A DNA stretch of 64,000 nt from a virus. Positions 11,996 through 58,010 of the stretch are shown here, in pieces. How positions within the stretch are numbered: the stretch's first letter is position 1; each line of letters starts with the position of its first letter. The notes under the pieces were generated by a model, which was not told where the DNA came from, did not search any database, and saw nothing but the letters and a program-made list of their open reading frames with translations. The position numbers were made by a program, and so were the translations under genes. The stretch spans positions 1 to 64,000 of the IMG/VR virus record IMGVR_UViG_3300032285_004073; one strand, 5' to 3'.

Positions 11996-12460
11996 ATGTG
12001 GCAGAATATTCTTAATATAGGTCAAACCGTTAGTGCTTTTCTTACAAATGGAAAGGCACCGCCAAATACTCCACCTGAATTGGAGAAGAAGATGGAAGAC
12101 ACGAACCATCTTGCATCTAAAAAGTTTTTTGTAATCTTTTCAGCAATTATTATGATTGTGATTATGTTTTTAATGGCAGTTGGTTTTCTTTTTCTTATTC
12201 CAACAGATCATGATTTTGTAGTAACAGCGTATTCTACCATATTCACAAAAATCATAGAAATATTTGGGTTAGTCATATCGGTTTATATAGGCGCACAGGG
12301 TCTTGTTGACTTGAAATATAATAGTTCATCTAGTGCAAGTGTAGCAGGAGAAGCAGACAGTGAAACAACCAAAGAAGAAAAAGATGTTAATATAAATGAA
12401 ACTATATTAACAAACAATGCAAAGGAAGATGACTATAACATTTCGGAGGTAGAAATATGA
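11996..12460 (+). CDS. Holin-like protein (two TMs)
   Basis: Two TM helices, acidic C-terminal tail, directly upstream of the endolysin; TAAATA motif. Confidence 0.65.
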   Translation: MWQNILNIGQTVSAFLTNGKAPPNTPPELEKKMEDTNHLASKKFFVIFSAIIMIVIMFLMAVGFLFLIPTDHDFVVTAYSTIFTKIIEIFGLVISVYIGAQGLVDLKYNSSSSASVAGEADSETTKEEKDVNINETILTNNAKEDDYNISEVEI

Positions 12461-13068: not shown

Positions 13069-13331
13069 TGGATTTAAAAGATGTATATTCAAAACAAGTT
13101 AAAAAAACCTCTGTATCCAGTCATGGATTAGGATTTGGTAATAATTTCCCTTCTATAGAGAAGGACCCTATTATTAATCAATTAGAAATTGATGTAATGA
13201 GACAATTAGCTAGTTTAATGCCAAAAGAAGAAATTCCTATAAAGTCTGCTTCTCCTAGTATCAAAATTTTATCTCCAGAAGATGCATTAAAAGAGTTGAT
13301 TGAAATGGAAAAAAATATGAAAATAAAATAA
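13068..13331 (+). CDS. Hypothetical protein (track starts at 13059)
   Basis: TAATG coupling to the endolysin stop; MDLKDVYSKQV. Confidence 0.55.
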   Translation: MDLKDVYSKQVKKTSVSSHGLGFGNNFPSIEKDPIINQLEIDVMRQLASLMPKEEIPIKSASPSIKILSPEDALKELIEMEKNMKIK

Positions 13332-22263: not shown

Positions 22264-22620
22264 ATGAATGACATTTCTTTATTAAAAGAAGCTTATGATA
22301 AAGTTCTTAAAAGAAACTTGAGAGAAGATTTAAGTGTAGATACCATTTCTCCAGAAATGCCAGTACAAGCTTCTTTAGCCGCGGGACCAGAAACCACCAC
22401 ATTAACACCAGCTTTACTAGACTCTCCTATGGATAAAGAAGAGAGTGAAGTACATGATATGGTAATTGCTAAACTTTTACAAATTCAATCTGAAGCTAAT
22501 GAAGCTTTAAACTTTGTTAAAAGTGGTAAAACCGTTGAGTCTTGGATGTTTGCTTTAGTTGAATTGGCAGCTGATAAGGTCAGCACAGTTAAAAATCATT
22601 TAGAGTTCAGCCAAGGTTAA
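22264..22620 (+). CDS. Acidic late hypothetical protein
   Basis: TAAATA upstream; MNDISLLKEAYDKVL. Confidence 0.65.
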   Translation: MNDISLLKEAYDKVLKRNLREDLSVDTISPEMPVQASLAAGPETTTLTPALLDSPMDKEESEVHDMVIAKLLQIQSEANEALNFVKSGKTVESWMFALVELAADKVSTVKNHLEFSQG

Positions 22621-22665: not shown

Positions 22666-23256
22666 ATGAATGCAGATCATTTAAAATGGCAGACGGTTTT
22701 AGTGTTAAACCGTAATTGGCAAGCTATACACGTTAAATCTCCATCAGAAGCCTTGGCTATGATGTTTTCAGATACAGCTACTGGTCTTGATGTATTAGGT
22801 CAGGATAATATGGTTCCTTATAGATGGAATGAATGGGTTAATTTACCTTATGATGAAAATTCTAGTTATATTAAAACTATAAGAGGAAATATTAAAATTC
22901 CTAAAATCATTATTTTAGCCGAATATGATAAAGTACCTCAAAAAAGACCGAAATTTTCATCTAAAGGTATTTGGAATAGAGACGGTGGTATTTGTCAATA
23001 TACTGGTCAAAAATTGACCCCAAATGAAGGTAATATAGATCATGTAATACCAAGATCTCGTGGTGGCAAATCTACTTGGACTAATTGTGTTTTGGTGCAT
23101 AAAGAAGTTAATGCTAAAAAAGCAGATAGATTGCCGCAAGAAGCTGGTTTAAAATTAATAAGACAACCAAAAGAGCCTAATTCATTGCCCTCTACTTTTT
23201 ATATTAAAAACAGACATAAAATTAGAGAATGGGAATTGTTTTTAAAATATGAGTAG
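22666..23256 (+). CDS. HNH endonuclease (McrA/HNH_5-like)
   Basis: RDGGICQYTG, NIDHVIPRSRGG, WTNCV, NAKKAD. Confidence 0.9.
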   Translation: MNADHLKWQTVLVLNRNWQAIHVKSPSEALAMMFSDTATGLDVLGQDNMVPYRWNEWVNLPYDENSSYIKTIRGNIKIPKIIILAEYDKVPQKRPKFSSKGIWNRDGGICQYTGQKLTPNEGNIDHVIPRSRGGKSTWTNCVLVHKEVNAKKADRLPQEAGLKLIRQPKEPNSLPSTFYIKNRHKIREWELFLKYE

Positions 23257-23674
23257 AATAACTTGGGAAGAGTATGCTTTGAAAATAGCTGAGGTTGCTA
23301 GTCTTCGAAGTGAAGACCCACGAACTAAAGTAGGATGTTGTTTATTGAGACACGATCACACAATAGCTAGTTTAGGGTATAATGGAGCACCAGCAGGTGT
23401 TGAAATACCTTGGGACAATAGAGAAGAAAAACATAAAAGAGTAATTCATGCAGAAATCAATGCTTTAAGAATGATTAAACCAGGAGAGTGTTATCTAGCT
23501 GCAGTTACTCATTCTTGTTGTAATGATTGTTTAAAATCATTAGCAGCTTATGGTATTAAAAAAATAGTTTATAGAAACTATTATGATGCTGGATATCCAT
23601 TAGAGGATATTGCTAAAGAGTTTGGAATAGAAATTGTAAAAATAGCCTCTGGTGCTCAATCAGAACTAAATTAA
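23249..23674 (+). CDS. dCMP deaminase-family protein
   Basis: SEDPRTKVG, GYNG, HAEINAL, THSCCNDC zinc motifs. Confidence 0.88.
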   Translation: MSRITWEEYALKIAEVASLRSEDPRTKVGCCLLRHDHTIASLGYNGAPAGVEIPWDNREEKHKRVIHAEINALRMIKPGECYLAAVTHSCCNDCLKSLAAYGIKKIVYRNYYDAGYPLEDIAKEFGIEIVKIASGAQSELN

Positions 23675-24230
23675 ACTCTTAGCCAACCTTAACGTCAATA
23701 TTAATGACTTCTGGTTGAACCACAGGAACGACTACTCGCAGTAAGCCGTCTGTGTATGTTGATGTAATGTTTTTTGCGTCGGATTTATCACTAAGAGTAA
23801 ATGACAATTGTCCCTTTCTCTTACTGATACCCTTTTTGACGTAGGCTGTATTTTCAACAATTACATCCTCTTCTTTCTCAACATCAATAACAAGATGTCC
23901 ATCACGGACTTTAATATTAATGTTGTCTTTACCAATACCAGCCAATGCTACTTCAATAATATAGCTTGTTGGTTGGCCATCTTTATCCTTTGTCGCTTTG
24001 ACATTATAAGGATATACTGCATTCGGAACGTCAAAAGCGCGTCCATAATCAAGTTCTTCAAGAACTTCTTTAATCCAGCTGTCATTGAACAGAGCAGGAA
24101 GCTGGTTAATTCCTGAACCTGTAGCAGGAATGACCCTGCCGATCGTGTATGGTTGTATTGTTGTTGTCATATATTTCTCCTTTGTTAAGCGAGTTAATAT
24201 GTTTAGCTTTAGTCTTTTTGAGCACCAGAG
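23647..24230. repeat. Inverted repeat pair flanking hsp20
   Basis: CTCTGGTGCTCAA (23647-59) and TTGAGCACCAGAG (24218-30) are exact reverse complements; pairing extends to ~25 bp with bulges. Confidence 0.9.
23679..24170 (-). CDS. Small heat-shock protein (Hsp20/alpha-crystallin)
   Basis: YPYNV, YIIEVALAG, YVKKGISKR, YTDGLLRV; AAGGAG SD; TATAAATA late promoter at 24240-47. Confidence 0.92.
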   Translation of the reverse strand: MTTTIQPYTIGRVIPATGSGINQLPALFNDSWIKEVLEELDYGRAFDVPNAVYPYNVKATKDKDGQPTSYIIEVALAGIGKDNINIKVRDGHLVIDVEKEEDVIVENTAYVKKGISKRKGQLSFTLSDKSDAKNITSTYTDGLLRVVVPVVQPEVINIDVKVG

Positions 24231-24239
24231 CTATGAATA

Positions 24240-24247
24240 TATTTATA
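24240..24247 (-). promoter_or_regulatory. T4-type late promoter TATAAATA for hsp20
   Basis: Exact T4 late consensus upstream of the hsp20 leader. Confidence 0.75.
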
Positions 24248-24274
24248 CACTAATCTAAAATTATCTCAACTTTT

Positions 24275-25951
24275 TTATGCTTCACATGATTTACAAGTCA
24301 TAATAGAACGAGCTAAATCTTTAGAAGGATTAGAACTTCTTTGATAATAAAGTGATTTAATACCTTGTTCCCATGCAAAAATATTAAGCTCATTTACTGC
24401 CTTGGGAGATGTTCCTGCTGGTATCATAAGATTTAAACTTTGACCTTGATCAATATACTTTTGACGACCTGCTGCTTGAATAACAATTTCTTTTTGAGAT
24501 GTTTCTGCAAAAGTCTTGAAAACTTCTTTTTCTTCTTCTGTAAGGAAATCTAAATGTTGAACAGATCCTCCATGAATGAGAATGGATTTCCAAGTTTCCT
24601 CGTCATTCTTATCTTTCAATTTAAGTAAATTTTTAAGATAAGGATTTTTATAAGTAAATTTACCTTTTGCTAAATCTTTAACAAAGTAATTTGATTCAAG
24701 AGGTTCAATACTTGGTGATACTTGACCAAGAATGAAAGATGACGATGTAGTAGGAGCAACAGCAAGTGTTGTTGTATTTCTACGATTATAACCCTTAAGC
24801 AATTCTGGTTCCCCAATCAATTCTGAAAGTTCTTTAGTTGCTTTGTCTGCTCTTTCACGGATTGTTTTCCAAATAGTATTATTAAGAAATTTGGCTTCCA
24901 TGGATTCAAATGCAATTAATTTAGATTGAAGAAGTGAATGCCACCCAAGGACACCCAGGCCTAAAGCTCTATGTCTTATAGCAAACTTTCTCGGGGCATC
25001 CATAAAAGGCATGTCTTTGGTTTTATCAATAAATTCTGACATGACAGCATCAAGAAAATAAATCATAGTTTCTACGGCATCAGTGTCTTTCCATTCTTCC
25101 CACTTTTCAAGATTCATAGAAGAAAGATCACATACAAATGATTCATCATCACTATTAGGGAGCATGATTTCTGTGCAAAGATTAGAATGATTAATCTTTA
25201 AATTCTTATCTTTATAAACCTGCGGAGCTTGATTATTGACGTTATCTGTAAAGAAAATATAAGGATATCCAGACTCAAATCTTTTTTTAAGAACTAAACC
25301 CCAAATTCTACGTTTTTCTTTATCCCCATCAATCATGGATTTCATCCACTCATCACTGACTGTAACACCAATAGAAAGATTTTGAATCTCATTGCCCTCT
25401 GAACGAATTTTTAAGAATTCTTCTATGTCCTTATGATCAATAGGAAGATAAGAAGCAAAAGACCCTCTTCGCACGTTTCCTTGAGAAATGACATTCATTA
25501 AACTCTCAAAAAGCTCCATAAAGTGAACTGTTCCTGTAGACTCCCCTCCTGAAGAAATTGGGGTACCTCTACTTCTTAAAGATCCAAAATAAGCAGAGGT
25601 ACCTCCACCACCTTTTGTCATCATGCCCACTTCAGAAACTTTCTCTAGAATACCTTCCATGGTATCTGGAATATGGGAACCAAAACAAGAAATAGGAAGA
25701 CCTCTATTACGACCAAAATTAGACCAGATAGGAGATGCTAGAGAATAAAAACCTCTATGCATATAATCTTCAAACTTTTTTGCAAATTTTGTATCTCCTG
25801 TAAAATCAACCAAGATTTTTTGAGCTGCTTTGGCTATATCTTTGATTCTTTGTTCTGGTGTTTCTCCCTCTAACAAATAACCTCTTTGAAGGAATTTTCT
25901 GGAATCTTTGTTGAGCCAATAAATATCGGAATGCTGCGCTTCGGTAGTCAT
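24275..25951 (-). CDS. nrdA: Class I ribonucleotide reductase alpha subunit
   Basis: LPISCF, SNLCTEI, VCDLSS, APTTSSS, C-terminal CKSCEA; no intein. Confidence 0.95.
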   Translation of the reverse strand: MTTEAQHSDIYWLNKDSRKFLQRGYLLEGETPEQRIKDIAKAAQKILVDFTGDTKFAKKFEDYMHRGFYSLASPIWSNFGRNRGLPISCFGSHIPDTMEGILEKVSEVGMMTKGGGGTSAYFGSLRSRGTPISSGGESTGTVHFMELFESLMNVISQGNVRRGSFASYLPIDHKDIEEFLKIRSEGNEIQNLSIGVTVSDEWMKSMIDGDKEKRRIWGLVLKKRFESGYPYIFFTDNVNNQAPQVYKDKNLKINHSNLCTEIMLPNSDDESFVCDLSSMNLEKWEEWKDTDAVETMIYFLDAVMSEFIDKTKDMPFMDAPRKFAIRHRALGLGVLGWHSLLQSKLIAFESMEAKFLNNTIWKTIRERADKATKELSELIGEPELLKGYNRRNTTTLAVAPTTSSSFILGQVSPSIEPLESNYFVKDLAKGKFTYKNPYLKNLLKLKDKNDEETWKSILIHGGSVQHLDFLTEEEKEVFKTFAETSQKEIVIQAAGRQKYIDQGQSLNLMIPAGTSPKAVNELNIFAWEQGIKSLYYQRSSNPSKDLARSIMTCKSCEA

Positions 25952-56269: not shown

Positions 56270-57115
56270 TTACTTTAAGTCTCTACCGGCATGTGTAACC
56301 GAAACTGCAATCGAAGAGTGAATGGACTCGTAGTGATTGACAATTACAAGATAATCCTTAATGCGACCATCAAGATCCTTGTCTAACTCAACTGCAACCT
56401 TACGCACCATATCTTCAACAAAGACTGGATTCTCATACATAAGTTCCGTCTGATATGCTTCGTCAACCCTCTTAAGAGCATTGACAATGGGTGCAGAGCT
56501 GCTTCTCTCAACTGCACCAACAAGCTCTTCGAACCAATAAACATCCTTGCCTTCTGTGCCTGGATGATTGATCTCAACGGTAACATCCGCATAAGACTGC
56601 TGATTATGGGCTCCATAATCACTGATCTCTTTAGAGCAAGGGCAGAGGGAAGCATAAAGAACATTGGCGTGAAGATAAAACTTCTTCTCACCGTTAATAA
56701 GACGTCCTTCAAAGGATCCCTGATAATCCATGTGAGACTTAACTTTAGAAACCGGAGCTTCCTTAATCATGAAATAATCAAACTTGATCTTGATGTAAGC
56801 ATTCTGAGACTTCAGACGATTCTTACATTCATCAAGGAGAAGATCCATAACCTGATCAATGCGATGGGTCTTATTAGCAAGAACCTCTTCAACCAGGATA
56901 CGATAGCGACTCATGTTTGTACCTTTGACCTCAGGTGTAAGGTCAGTGTACATACTGATGATTGCCTTGGTGGGGTTAATGGTTCCATCTTGTCTAATAA
57001 TCTCCATAGGAACTACAATATTCCTAGAACCAACTTTAGGAATATACTTCTTAGGGAAACCATCCAGCGTATTTTGAATATCTGGAATGTCGTCGTTTGT
57101 CTTTATTCTTGGCAT
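56270..57115 (-). CDS. folE2: GTP cyclohydrolase type IB (track start 57178; likely start 57115)
   Basis: KGTNMSRY, SLCPCSKEIS.YGAHNQ, LKRVDE, ENPVFVEDMVR, ESIH. Confidence 0.93.
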   Translation of the reverse strand: MPRIKTNDDIPDIQNTLDGFPKKYIPKVGSRNIVVPMEIIRQDGTINPTKAIISMYTDLTPEVKGTNMSRYRILVEEVLANKTHRIDQVMDLLLDECKNRLKSQNAYIKIKFDYFMIKEAPVSKVKSHMDYQGSFEGRLINGEKKFYLHANVLYASLCPCSKEISDYGAHNQQSYADVTVEINHPGTEGKDVYWFEELVGAVERSSSAPIVNALKRVDEAYQTELMYENPVFVEDMVRKVAVELDKDLDGRIKDYLVIVNHYESIHSSIAVSVTHAGRDLK

Positions 57116-57143
57116 ATATTTGTTTGTTTGTTGTTTAATTGAA

Positions 57144-58010
57144 TTACAGATCTTTGAGAATATCTTGGATACGATCATTTTGATCTGATAGGACTTCGTT
57201 ATTATCCTCTACAACTGTAGAAGAAGCAACGGTGTTTGTTGATACTGGAGCTATATAGGTTTCCTCTTCCTCTTCCTGAATATCTACCTTAGGAGCAGAG
57301 ACTTCTTCATTTCCGTGAAAATGGACATTAAGAAGCTTAGTAATATCTTCTGGTGTCTTATGCTCAAAGATATTGTCAAGAGGCTTAAAGGCCTTATAAA
57401 TCTCTTCAATATCCTGCGCTCCCTCAAGAGGAGAAGGAGCAACAAATTTGGAACTAACATAGGTAGGATAACCACCCTCATTTTCTTCCACCTTGATGCG
57501 AAGATTGCATCCTTTTTCGGATAGATCGAAAATCTTTGCCCCGAGGTCATCCGAATCATCACCGCTGATGGCATCAGTAATAATCTTAGCAAGCTGCTTA
57601 CCGTAACGGAGAATCTTAACCTGACCCTGATTCTCTGGATTGGTTGGATCCTTAATTACATAGACATTGGCGAGCCAATTCTCATTGCGCTTAATAGGAG
57701 AAATACGCTTGATCTCTGCCTCGTTATTGGTGCGATAAACCTTAGAACGATATTCATCAATAGGACAACGCTCTCCATAGGTTGTAGGACAAGTACAAGA
57801 GACAAGCTGATTAGTTACTACACTCTTCCAAAGATGATGATAGTAATGATAAAGGGTGCGCTCTGGAGCTTCAATATTAGGAATAAGGCGTACCAAATAG
57901 GTATTACCAATCTCCAGCTTCATAAAGTCTCTGAATCCGCTTTCGGTATTGGATGACTTCTTGTTGAGAGCCTCTTTAATAGACTCGAATAGGTTAGTGT
58001 TGTATTTCAT
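57144..58010 (-). CDS. Single-stranded DNA-binding protein (gp32)
   Basis: VRLIP, CPTTYGERCPI, NPENQGQV, YGKQL, FDL.EKG, acidic C-terminal tail. Confidence 0.93.
   Translation of the reverse strand: MKYNTNLFESIKEALNKKSSNTESGFRDFMKLEIGNTYLVRLIPNIEAPERTLYHYYHHLWKSVVTNQLVSCTCPTTYGERCPIDEYRSKVYRTNNEAEIKRISPIKRNENWLANVYVIKDPTNPENQGQVKILRYGKQLAKIITDAISGDDSDDLGAKIFDLSEKGCNLRIKVEENEGGYPTYVSSKFVAPSPLEGAQDIEEIYKAFKPLDNIFEHKTPEDITKLLNVHFHGNEEVSAPKVDIQEEEEETYIAPVSTNTVASSTVVEDNNEVLSDQNDRIQDILKDL

Follow-up and report, generated by a model that had tools for sequence, protein, structure and literature searches.

Few bacterial or phage messenger RNAs (mRNAs) are known to us in which the 5' end pairs with the 3' end of the same molecule, and the described cases, hok/aapA, hbs and icaR, each represent one gene family or organism. 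Here we describe a strongly supported RNA helix that appears to join the two ends of a late hsp20 mRNA in an uncultured T4-like phage. The gene lies within positions 1-64,000 of the IMG/VR virus record IMGVR_UViG_3300032285_004073, a stretch of 64,000 nucleotides (nt) that is called the window below. The whole record is 176.8 kb long, is approximately 82% complete and has T4-like gene content.

In the hok-type mRNAs (fbi) and in aapA1 of Helicobacter pylori, the 5' terminus pairs with the 3' end in compact and stable molecules, and this pairing is supported by covariation. In hok-type systems, which include an antisense RNA, the folded-back mRNA is not translated before its 3' end has been trimmed. 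The 5'-terminal bases of the phage hsp20 mRNA, as predicted, likewise pair with its 3' end. However, the phage gene encodes a 163-amino-acid Hsp20 chaperone, no antisense partner was seen, and the helix leaves the Shine-Dalgarno (SD) sequence outside. A second set of relevant elements acts locally. Stabilisers of the Escherichia coli ompA type are 5'-terminal stem-loops with a base-paired 5' terminus, and intrinsic terminators have a 3' stem with U residues behind it. A clade of hsp20 genes that lack the helix relies on just these two local elements, whereas in the window one helix appears to do both jobs, with the remaining ~525 nt of the mRNA as its 'loop'.

Pairing between the two untranslated regions (UTRs) modulates the decay of the Bacillus subtilis hbs mRNA, where compensatory mutations prove the pairing (Braun, Durand and Condon 2017, PMC5737220). 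The likeness lies in the pairing of a 5' UTR segment with the 3' UTR of its own mRNA; hbs mRNA is small and highly expressed, and the pairing there restricts attack by ribonucleases. The hbs helix of 14 base pairs (bp) is internal to the leader, covers an RNase Y site and is followed by a separate terminator hairpin. In contrast, the phage helix has ~30 bp at what are predicted to be the very first and last transcribed bases, no separate terminator accompanies it, and a ROSE-like hairpin is enclosed. In Staphylococcus aureus icaR, the 3' UTR is reported to pair with the SD, so that translation is blocked and RNase III is recruited (Ruiz de los Mozos et al. 2013, PMC3868564). The icaR mRNA shares with the phage gene the pairing between both UTRs of one mRNA and differs from it in that the phage SD is outside the long-range helix. 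The features common to hbs and icaR, complementary 5' and 3' UTR segments of one transcript and compensatory change, are both found at the phage locus.

The ROSE-like RNA thermometers are typically found before small heat-shock genes and carry a U(U/C)GCU motif whose pairing with the SD is imperfect and is predicted to leave a G bulged (PMC3669281, PMC11342760). In short Pseudomonas ROSE thermometers, disruption of the upstream hairpin I derepresses the element (Krajewski et al. 2013, PMC3669281). The same report knows of no ROSE element with a single hairpin and suggests that hairpin I may stabilise the mRNA. The phage leader resembles the short ibpA thermometers (PMC3669281; Tong et al. 2024, PMC11342760) in its anti-SD with a predicted bulged G, its short 3'-proximal hairpin, its position before a small heat-shock gene and the stable structure just 5' of the hairpin. 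It differs in that this 5' structure is not a local hairpin I and is instead one strand of a helix to which the 3' UTR contributes the other. Further, the unit is phage-borne and has a late promoter and no match to Rfam ROSE, and its temperature response is putative.

None of these systems, hbs, hok/aapA, icaR or the short ROSE elements, combines a terminal closing helix of ~30 bp with a ROSE-type SD hairpin, and none of them is from a phage. Rfam holds no family that matches either helix arm or the leader, and our literature search found no published description of a clamp or a thermometer on a phage hsp20.

The terminal helix of the hsp20 transcript

The hsp20 coding sequence (23679-24170, minus strand) encodes a protein of 163 amino acids with an alpha-crystallin domain (Pfam HSP20, E = 2.2e-14). 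The AUG is at 24170 and the stop codon is at 23681-23679. A T4-type late promoter element, TATAAATA, is located upstream on the same strand (24240-24247) and ends 5 nt before the first paired base. The ends of the transcript are predicted, the start from promoter spacing and the 3' end from a run of U residues. As an aside, TATAAATA occurs 8 times in the whole window and is depleted relative to dinucleotide-preserving shuffles (15.4 +/- 3.9 expected), as it could be if stray late promoters were selected against.

The first ~34 nt of the predicted transcript pair with ~35 nt after the stop codon to form an interrupted helix of ~30 bp in total, as read from the sequence and from the duplex and transcript folds. 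The 5' arm (24201-24234, minus strand) consists of AUAG (24234-24231), the 13-nt core CUCUGGUGCUCAA (24230-24218), AA, AGA, CUAAA (to 24208), GC and UAAAC (24205-24201). The 3' arm (23642-23676, minus strand) begins 3 nt past the stop codon and consists of GUUUA (23676-23672), A, UUUAG (23670-23666), U, UCU, GA, UUGAGCACCAGAG (23659-23647), a bulged G (23646) and CUAU (23645-23642). Approximately 525 nt separate the arms. A sequence-only reading of this region, made without database searches, had proposed a helix of ~25 bp starting just below the late promoter. The arms, the 13 perfect bp and the flanking stems read on the minus strand as it claimed, and the placement below the promoter is similar in relatives. 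The length is what changes, as the helix continues inward for 5 bp (UAAAC/GUUUA).

The core 13-mer is found only at these two sites in the window, with 0.05 expected, and in this region a repeat finder ranked the arm pair first among inverted repeats. The window has nine pairs of 13-bp inverted repeats spaced 100-1500 nt apart, so the core alone is not rare. The stronger evidence is energetic. The leader/trailer duplex has a predicted energy of -37.9 kcal/mol compared with -12.1 kcal/mol for shuffled trailers (z = -7.9), and it is the best among the leader/trailer pairs of the 76 window open reading frames (ORFs) of at least 100 codons (median -12.4). The next-best duplexes in the window (56270-57178, 22264-22620, 22666-23256 and 11996-12460) do not rise above their own shuffles. 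The helix also closes both the minimum free energy (MFE) and the centroid folds of the entire predicted 599-nt transcript (z = -6.4). Elsewhere in the window, in the lysis-gene region, there is an exact 13-bp inverted repeat containing G+C, AGGAGAAGCAGAC, with its arms (12346-12358 and 13244-13256) 898 nt apart.

Conservation among relatives and the helix-less sister clade

Searches of viral and metagenome contigs recovered 148 hsp20 loci, most of them from freshwater lakes, and these were reduced to 79 distinct flank sets from lake and marine viral contigs. The proteins of the distinct loci are 48-84% identical to the window copy. Among isolate phages, no relative of the window hsp20 was found by nucleotide search or by protein search (E <= 1e-8).

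A leader/trailer helix is present in 67 of the 79 distinct loci. Duplex energies range from -16 to -47 kcal/mol (65/67 at or below -27), against -8 to -18 kcal/mol for shuffles. The arms have diverged greatly, as is seen in the pairs CUUCGGCGCUCAA / UUGAGCGCCGAAG, GCCCUAGUGUU / AACACUAGGGGC and UUGACUUCUAGUGCC / GGCACUAGAAGUCAA. In a plain MAFFT alignment of the full transcripts, which was not fitted to the structure, both partners have changed at 15 of 17 pairs. This alignment gives a covariation score of 0.357, compared with 0.203 +/- 0.009 for column shuffles (0/500 reach 0.357), and the score drops to 0.06-0.16 in controls with the partners slid by 1-3 columns. RNAalifold, given arms that had been aligned separately and not fitted to the window structure, recovered a 10-bp inter-arm core that includes pairs such as UA 48 / CG 12 and GC 44 / AU 16. 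Cognate arms pair at a mean of -35.6 kcal/mol and non-cognate arms at -22.5 kcal/mol. A leader's own trailer ranks first of the 67 for 22 leaders and within the top five for 43.

The surroundings of the hsp20 unit are not shared among the loci. At least 28 types of upstream and at least 40 types of downstream neighbours, including transfer RNA (tRNA) genes, were counted with a rough ORF call. Because the neighbours vary, the complementarity belongs to hsp20 and not to its surroundings. The proposal of an RNA helix joining the ends of the hsp20 mRNA is thus borne out by arms that covary in 67 relatives, that start at the predicted transcription start and that move with the gene. Compensatory change in related hsp20 flanks is what the sequence-only reading had looked to as a check, and it had counted related genes without leader-trailer complementarity against itself; such genes do exist, as 12 of the 79, and all fall in a single clade.

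The relatives also agree on where the helix begins. An ATAAATA-like element (TGTATAAT in a distant clade) is found mostly 4-7 nt before the helix. Promoter spacing could be assigned in 40 of the 67 sequences and not in the other 27, and the figures given here come from those 40 or are rough. The gap is 4-7 nt in 28 of the 40 loci with a script-placed promoter, with a mode of 4. The helix ends in these counts were set automatically by RNAduplex, which added spurious A-U pairs into the promoter region. The T4-type late motif spans about -13 to -6. From this spacing and a gap of 4-7 nt, the first helix pair is placed at -1 to +2.

In the clade of L050-L059 the late TATAAATA is replaced by an extended -10 element (TGTATAAT) located 10-20 nt before the 5' arm. 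The helix of the TGTATAAT-type clade starts 2-7 nt past the element, at about the expected start of that promoter. The exchange of TATAAATA for TGTATAAT implies that an mRNA with the same clamp and ROSE-like hairpin belongs there to another timing class.

The 12 helix-less sequences form one clade (Shimodaira-Hasegawa-like approximate likelihood ratio test, SH-aLRT, 94 in a quick tree), so that one change suffices to explain them. Here a local 5'-terminal hairpin begins 4-5 nt past the late promoter, and its strands covary too (UGUCGG...UCGACA, UAUCAG...CUGAUA, UGCUGA...UCAGCA). The 5' strand of this hairpin is still like a 5' arm (GGUGCUC). In L039, L040, L042, L046, L132, L135, L137, L140, L141, L144 and L145 the hairpin comes directly after GATAAATA. 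Most members have a strong canonical intrinsic terminator past the stop codon. The leaders of this clade have neither an SD nor a ROSE motif, and with no visible SD before the start codon, translation initiation there must differ. In four members (L140, L141, L144 and L145) the terminator is replaced by a conserved G+C-rich segment (GCGACACCUGCCGAUUGCCCAUGGGGCUAUGCGAA...) in the first ~90 nt past the stop, which may belong to a structured RNA or mark where another gene begins.

The same gene therefore comes with either two local end structures or one helix, which suggests that the helix serves both 5'-end protection and the formation or protection of the 3' end. This clade is the best available argument for a role of the helix at both ends.

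The Shine-Dalgarno hairpin, the 3' end and the flanking genes

Immediately inside the helix, the predicted folds contain a ROSE-like hairpin (24168-24201, minus strand) in which CUCGCUU (24193-24187, with G24190 bulged) pairs with the SD AAGGAG (24182-24177). Its lower stem, CAUAU / AUAUG, takes in the hsp20 start codon. The bulged G (CUC-G-CUU / AAG-GAG) is present in all MFE folds predicted from 5 to 45 C. The hairpin has the U(U/C)GCU-type anti-SD, the predicted bulged G and the small heat-shock gene that define the ROSE-like signature. CUCGCUU is invariant or nearly so in leaders across the whole set. Every one of the 67 leaders with a helix has the ROSE-like motif, which all 12 helix-less leaders lack, and the motif occurs once in the 176.8-kb record. 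The lower stem covaries with the second codon, which is seen in L142 and L143 as ACUCAU / AUGAGU. RNAalifold at 37 C gave no consensus structure for the 60-nt leaders, as the SD hairpin is not strong enough and the alignment has too many gaps, and the hairpin was examined sequence by sequence.

No stable local hairpin was found 5' of the SD hairpin. The 5' segment instead pairs with the 3' UTR and folds only weakly on its own when the 3' arm is left out. The local 5' hairpin typical of ROSE elements is absent because the long-range helix occupies its position, and the helix is a candidate, by analogy, for the role of hairpin I.

The sequence-only reading had described the SD as not covered. 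This holds for the long-range helix and not for the leader as a whole, in which the local ROSE-like hairpin masks the SD. It had also allowed for a stabilising, processing or temperature-sensitive clamp; the part that senses temperature, if there is one, is more likely to be the local SD hairpin than the 30-bp helix. Between 5 and 45 C, the SD is predicted to go from an unpaired fraction of 0.01 to one of only 0.07-0.20. As this predicted opening is small, 'thermometer' here denotes a resemblance only and not a demonstrated function.

At the other end of the transcript, a run of five U (23638-23642, minus strand) directly past the last base pair is a possible 3' end or termination tract. No compact, local terminator hairpin was found after the window hsp20, and with ~525 nt between its arms the helix is not the compact, short-loop hairpin of an intrinsic terminator. 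At least 5 U within 8 nt past the helix were counted in 17/67 relatives compared with 5% of background windows, using automatic and rough helix ends. Many others have a TATAAT or TATATAATA word 5-15 nt past the 3' arm (L012, L016, L017, L028, L031, L078, L092 and others). With a U tract in 17/67 and a TATAAT-like word in many others, termination by the helix is possible and not general. A tRNA-Ser or tRNA-Cys gene often follows the TATAAT or TATATAATA word at 15-60 nt, and the word may be the promoter of the downstream tRNAs, abutting the 3' end of hsp20.

The 3' arm also overprints the final codons of a convergent dCMP deaminase gene (Pfam dCMP_cyt_deam_1), as had been noted from the sequence. 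Nine extra codons (ASGAQSELN) and the stop codon are read through the arm on the plus strand (23645-23674). The deaminase homologue of L025 ends ...FKI*, 6 nt outside the arm, and the window copy continues from ...VKI. The tail looks like incidental read-through into a constrained RNA element and not like a constraint on the arm. The start of the deaminase gene is overlapped by 8 nt by an HNH endonuclease gene (22666-23256, plus strand; Pfam HNH_4, HNH, HNH_5). Gene order varies among relatives here, and the gene product may be a homing endonuclease of the free-standing kind.

Possible roles of the helix

We favour, as somewhat better than an even bet, the reading that hsp20 forms a late transcription unit of its own with an mRNA that folds back, and that the helix is an end-sealing clamp that would protect and define both mRNA ends and act as a scaffold for the ROSE-like hairpin. 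The helix encloses the hairpin that masks the SD and AUG together with the whole coding region. A buried 5'-terminal nucleotide would block pyrophosphate removal and 5'-end-dependent attack by RNase E or J, and a buried 3' tail would block 3' exonucleases. With no other terminator at hand, the helix and the U run probably define the 3' end. The helix would also replace the stable hairpin I that short ROSE-like thermometers need beside a labile SD hairpin. As a result, full-length hsp20 mRNA would be long-lived and its translation gated at the SD hairpin. In the helix-less clade the equivalent jobs would be done by the two local structures, the 5'-terminal hairpin and the classic terminator.

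Several points weigh against an end-sealing clamp. A 30-bp duplex is an obvious RNase III substrate and could trigger cleavage and not prevent decay. The U run behind the helix is common to only about a quarter to a third of relatives. The Rfam models ROSE, ROSE_2 and ROSE_3 gave no match at E <= 1 in 23400-24500 or at E <= 10 in 24140-24250. In the thermodynamic models the SD is more than 85% paired up to 45 C, and temperature gating in a cold lake is unproven. The excess of G:U over A:C mismatches in the sense reading of the arms (66:48) is a strand asymmetry that gives weak evidence for RNA, and the sequences are related by descent.

The first of these points is taken up by the best surviving alternative, which we consider unlikely, if worth keeping in mind. 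The helix may be a processing stalk in which host RNase III cuts the leader/trailer duplex, thereby trimming the ends or excising hsp20 from longer tRNA-containing transcripts, so that the message is activated or destroyed. RNase III cuts the stems flanking 16S and 23S rRNA and the T7 R sites. Interrupted double-stranded RNA with internal loops and a bulge resembles its known substrates. The phage helix has ~30 interrupted bp (-37.9 kcal/mol), above the roughly 20 bp such a substrate takes, with internal loops and a conserved bulge, and tRNA genes flank the unit in many relatives. The pairing of the icaR 5' and 3' UTRs is reported to recruit RNase III (PMC3868564). However, the conserved promoter directly before the 5' arm leaves little or no 5' flank and speaks against a long precursor, the helix-less clade substitutes an end-protecting hairpin and a terminator and not a processing site, and the phage encodes no RNase III.

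A translation-linked switch is an improbable alternative. Here the clamp sets the stop codon beside the start region and certifies full-length transcripts or recycles ribosomes; the nascent RNA would hide the AUG and the clamp would free it. The inner end of the helix is 3 nt from the stop codon and abuts the SD/AUG hairpin. In 4/7 representatives (WIN, L014, L002 and L143) the predicted unpaired fraction of the AUG at 37 C rises from 0.01-0.24 without the 3' arm to ~0.5-0.7 with it. These values come from thermodynamic prediction alone, though; the effect is absent in L018 and L050 and small in L025, and the SD is masked in both states. A broader version makes the helix a prokaryotic 'closed-loop' device that terminates transcription across the 525-nt loop, seals the ends and restricts translation to complete transcripts or returns ribosomes to the start. 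It has a slim chance of being correct. If true, it would be a phage solution with an outcome analogous to eukaryotic cap-poly(A) circularisation. There is no support for back-splicing or for circularisation, a signal for which the sequence-only reading had also mentioned.

The same reading had offered an invertible DNA segment as an alternative. Several features, however, favour an RNA helix. The bulged G just outside the core of the 3' arm is kept in 31/67 relatives, in several clades with different cores, and other bulges are also specific to one arm. On average, the sense duplex gains 2 kcal/mol over the antisense duplex, with 40 loci favouring the sense and 26 the antisense, a weak indication that is itself tied to phylogeny. 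That the arms are instead DNA-level inverted repeats, which gene conversion keeps alike and at which an hsp20 cassette inverts or moves by recombination, is very improbable: the repeats do bracket exactly one gene, the unit is in many different contexts and an HNH endonuclease gene is ~400 bp away, but in the assembled data 0/67 distinct loci are flipped and all read away from the promoter element, the bulges and loops that distinguish the arms are strand-specific and conserved, the arm sequences drift with pairing kept, which is unexpected for a protein-recognised site, and the 176.8-kb record has no serine or tyrosine recombinase (Resolvase or Phage_integrase domains). The invertible segment was rejected on these grounds.

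With an RNA clamp that would seal both ends as the preferred reading, the hsp20 mRNA is, on the strength of the sequence comparisons, a well-supported candidate for a natural example of a 'closed' prokaryotic mRNA. Its 30-bp terminal helix, for which 67 sequences supply natural compensatory mutations, and a sister clade that serves as a natural control make an unusually clean system. It is suited to questions of how end pairing affects mRNA lifetime, 3'-end formation and translation, and of how far a ROSE sensor depends on a neighbouring helix. The element is compact, with ~70 nt of UTR sequence, and is a candidate for trial as an mRNA-stabilising module. For the uncultured and abundant T4-like phages of lakes, the structure described here suggests that a chaperone gene would be regulated post-transcriptionally.

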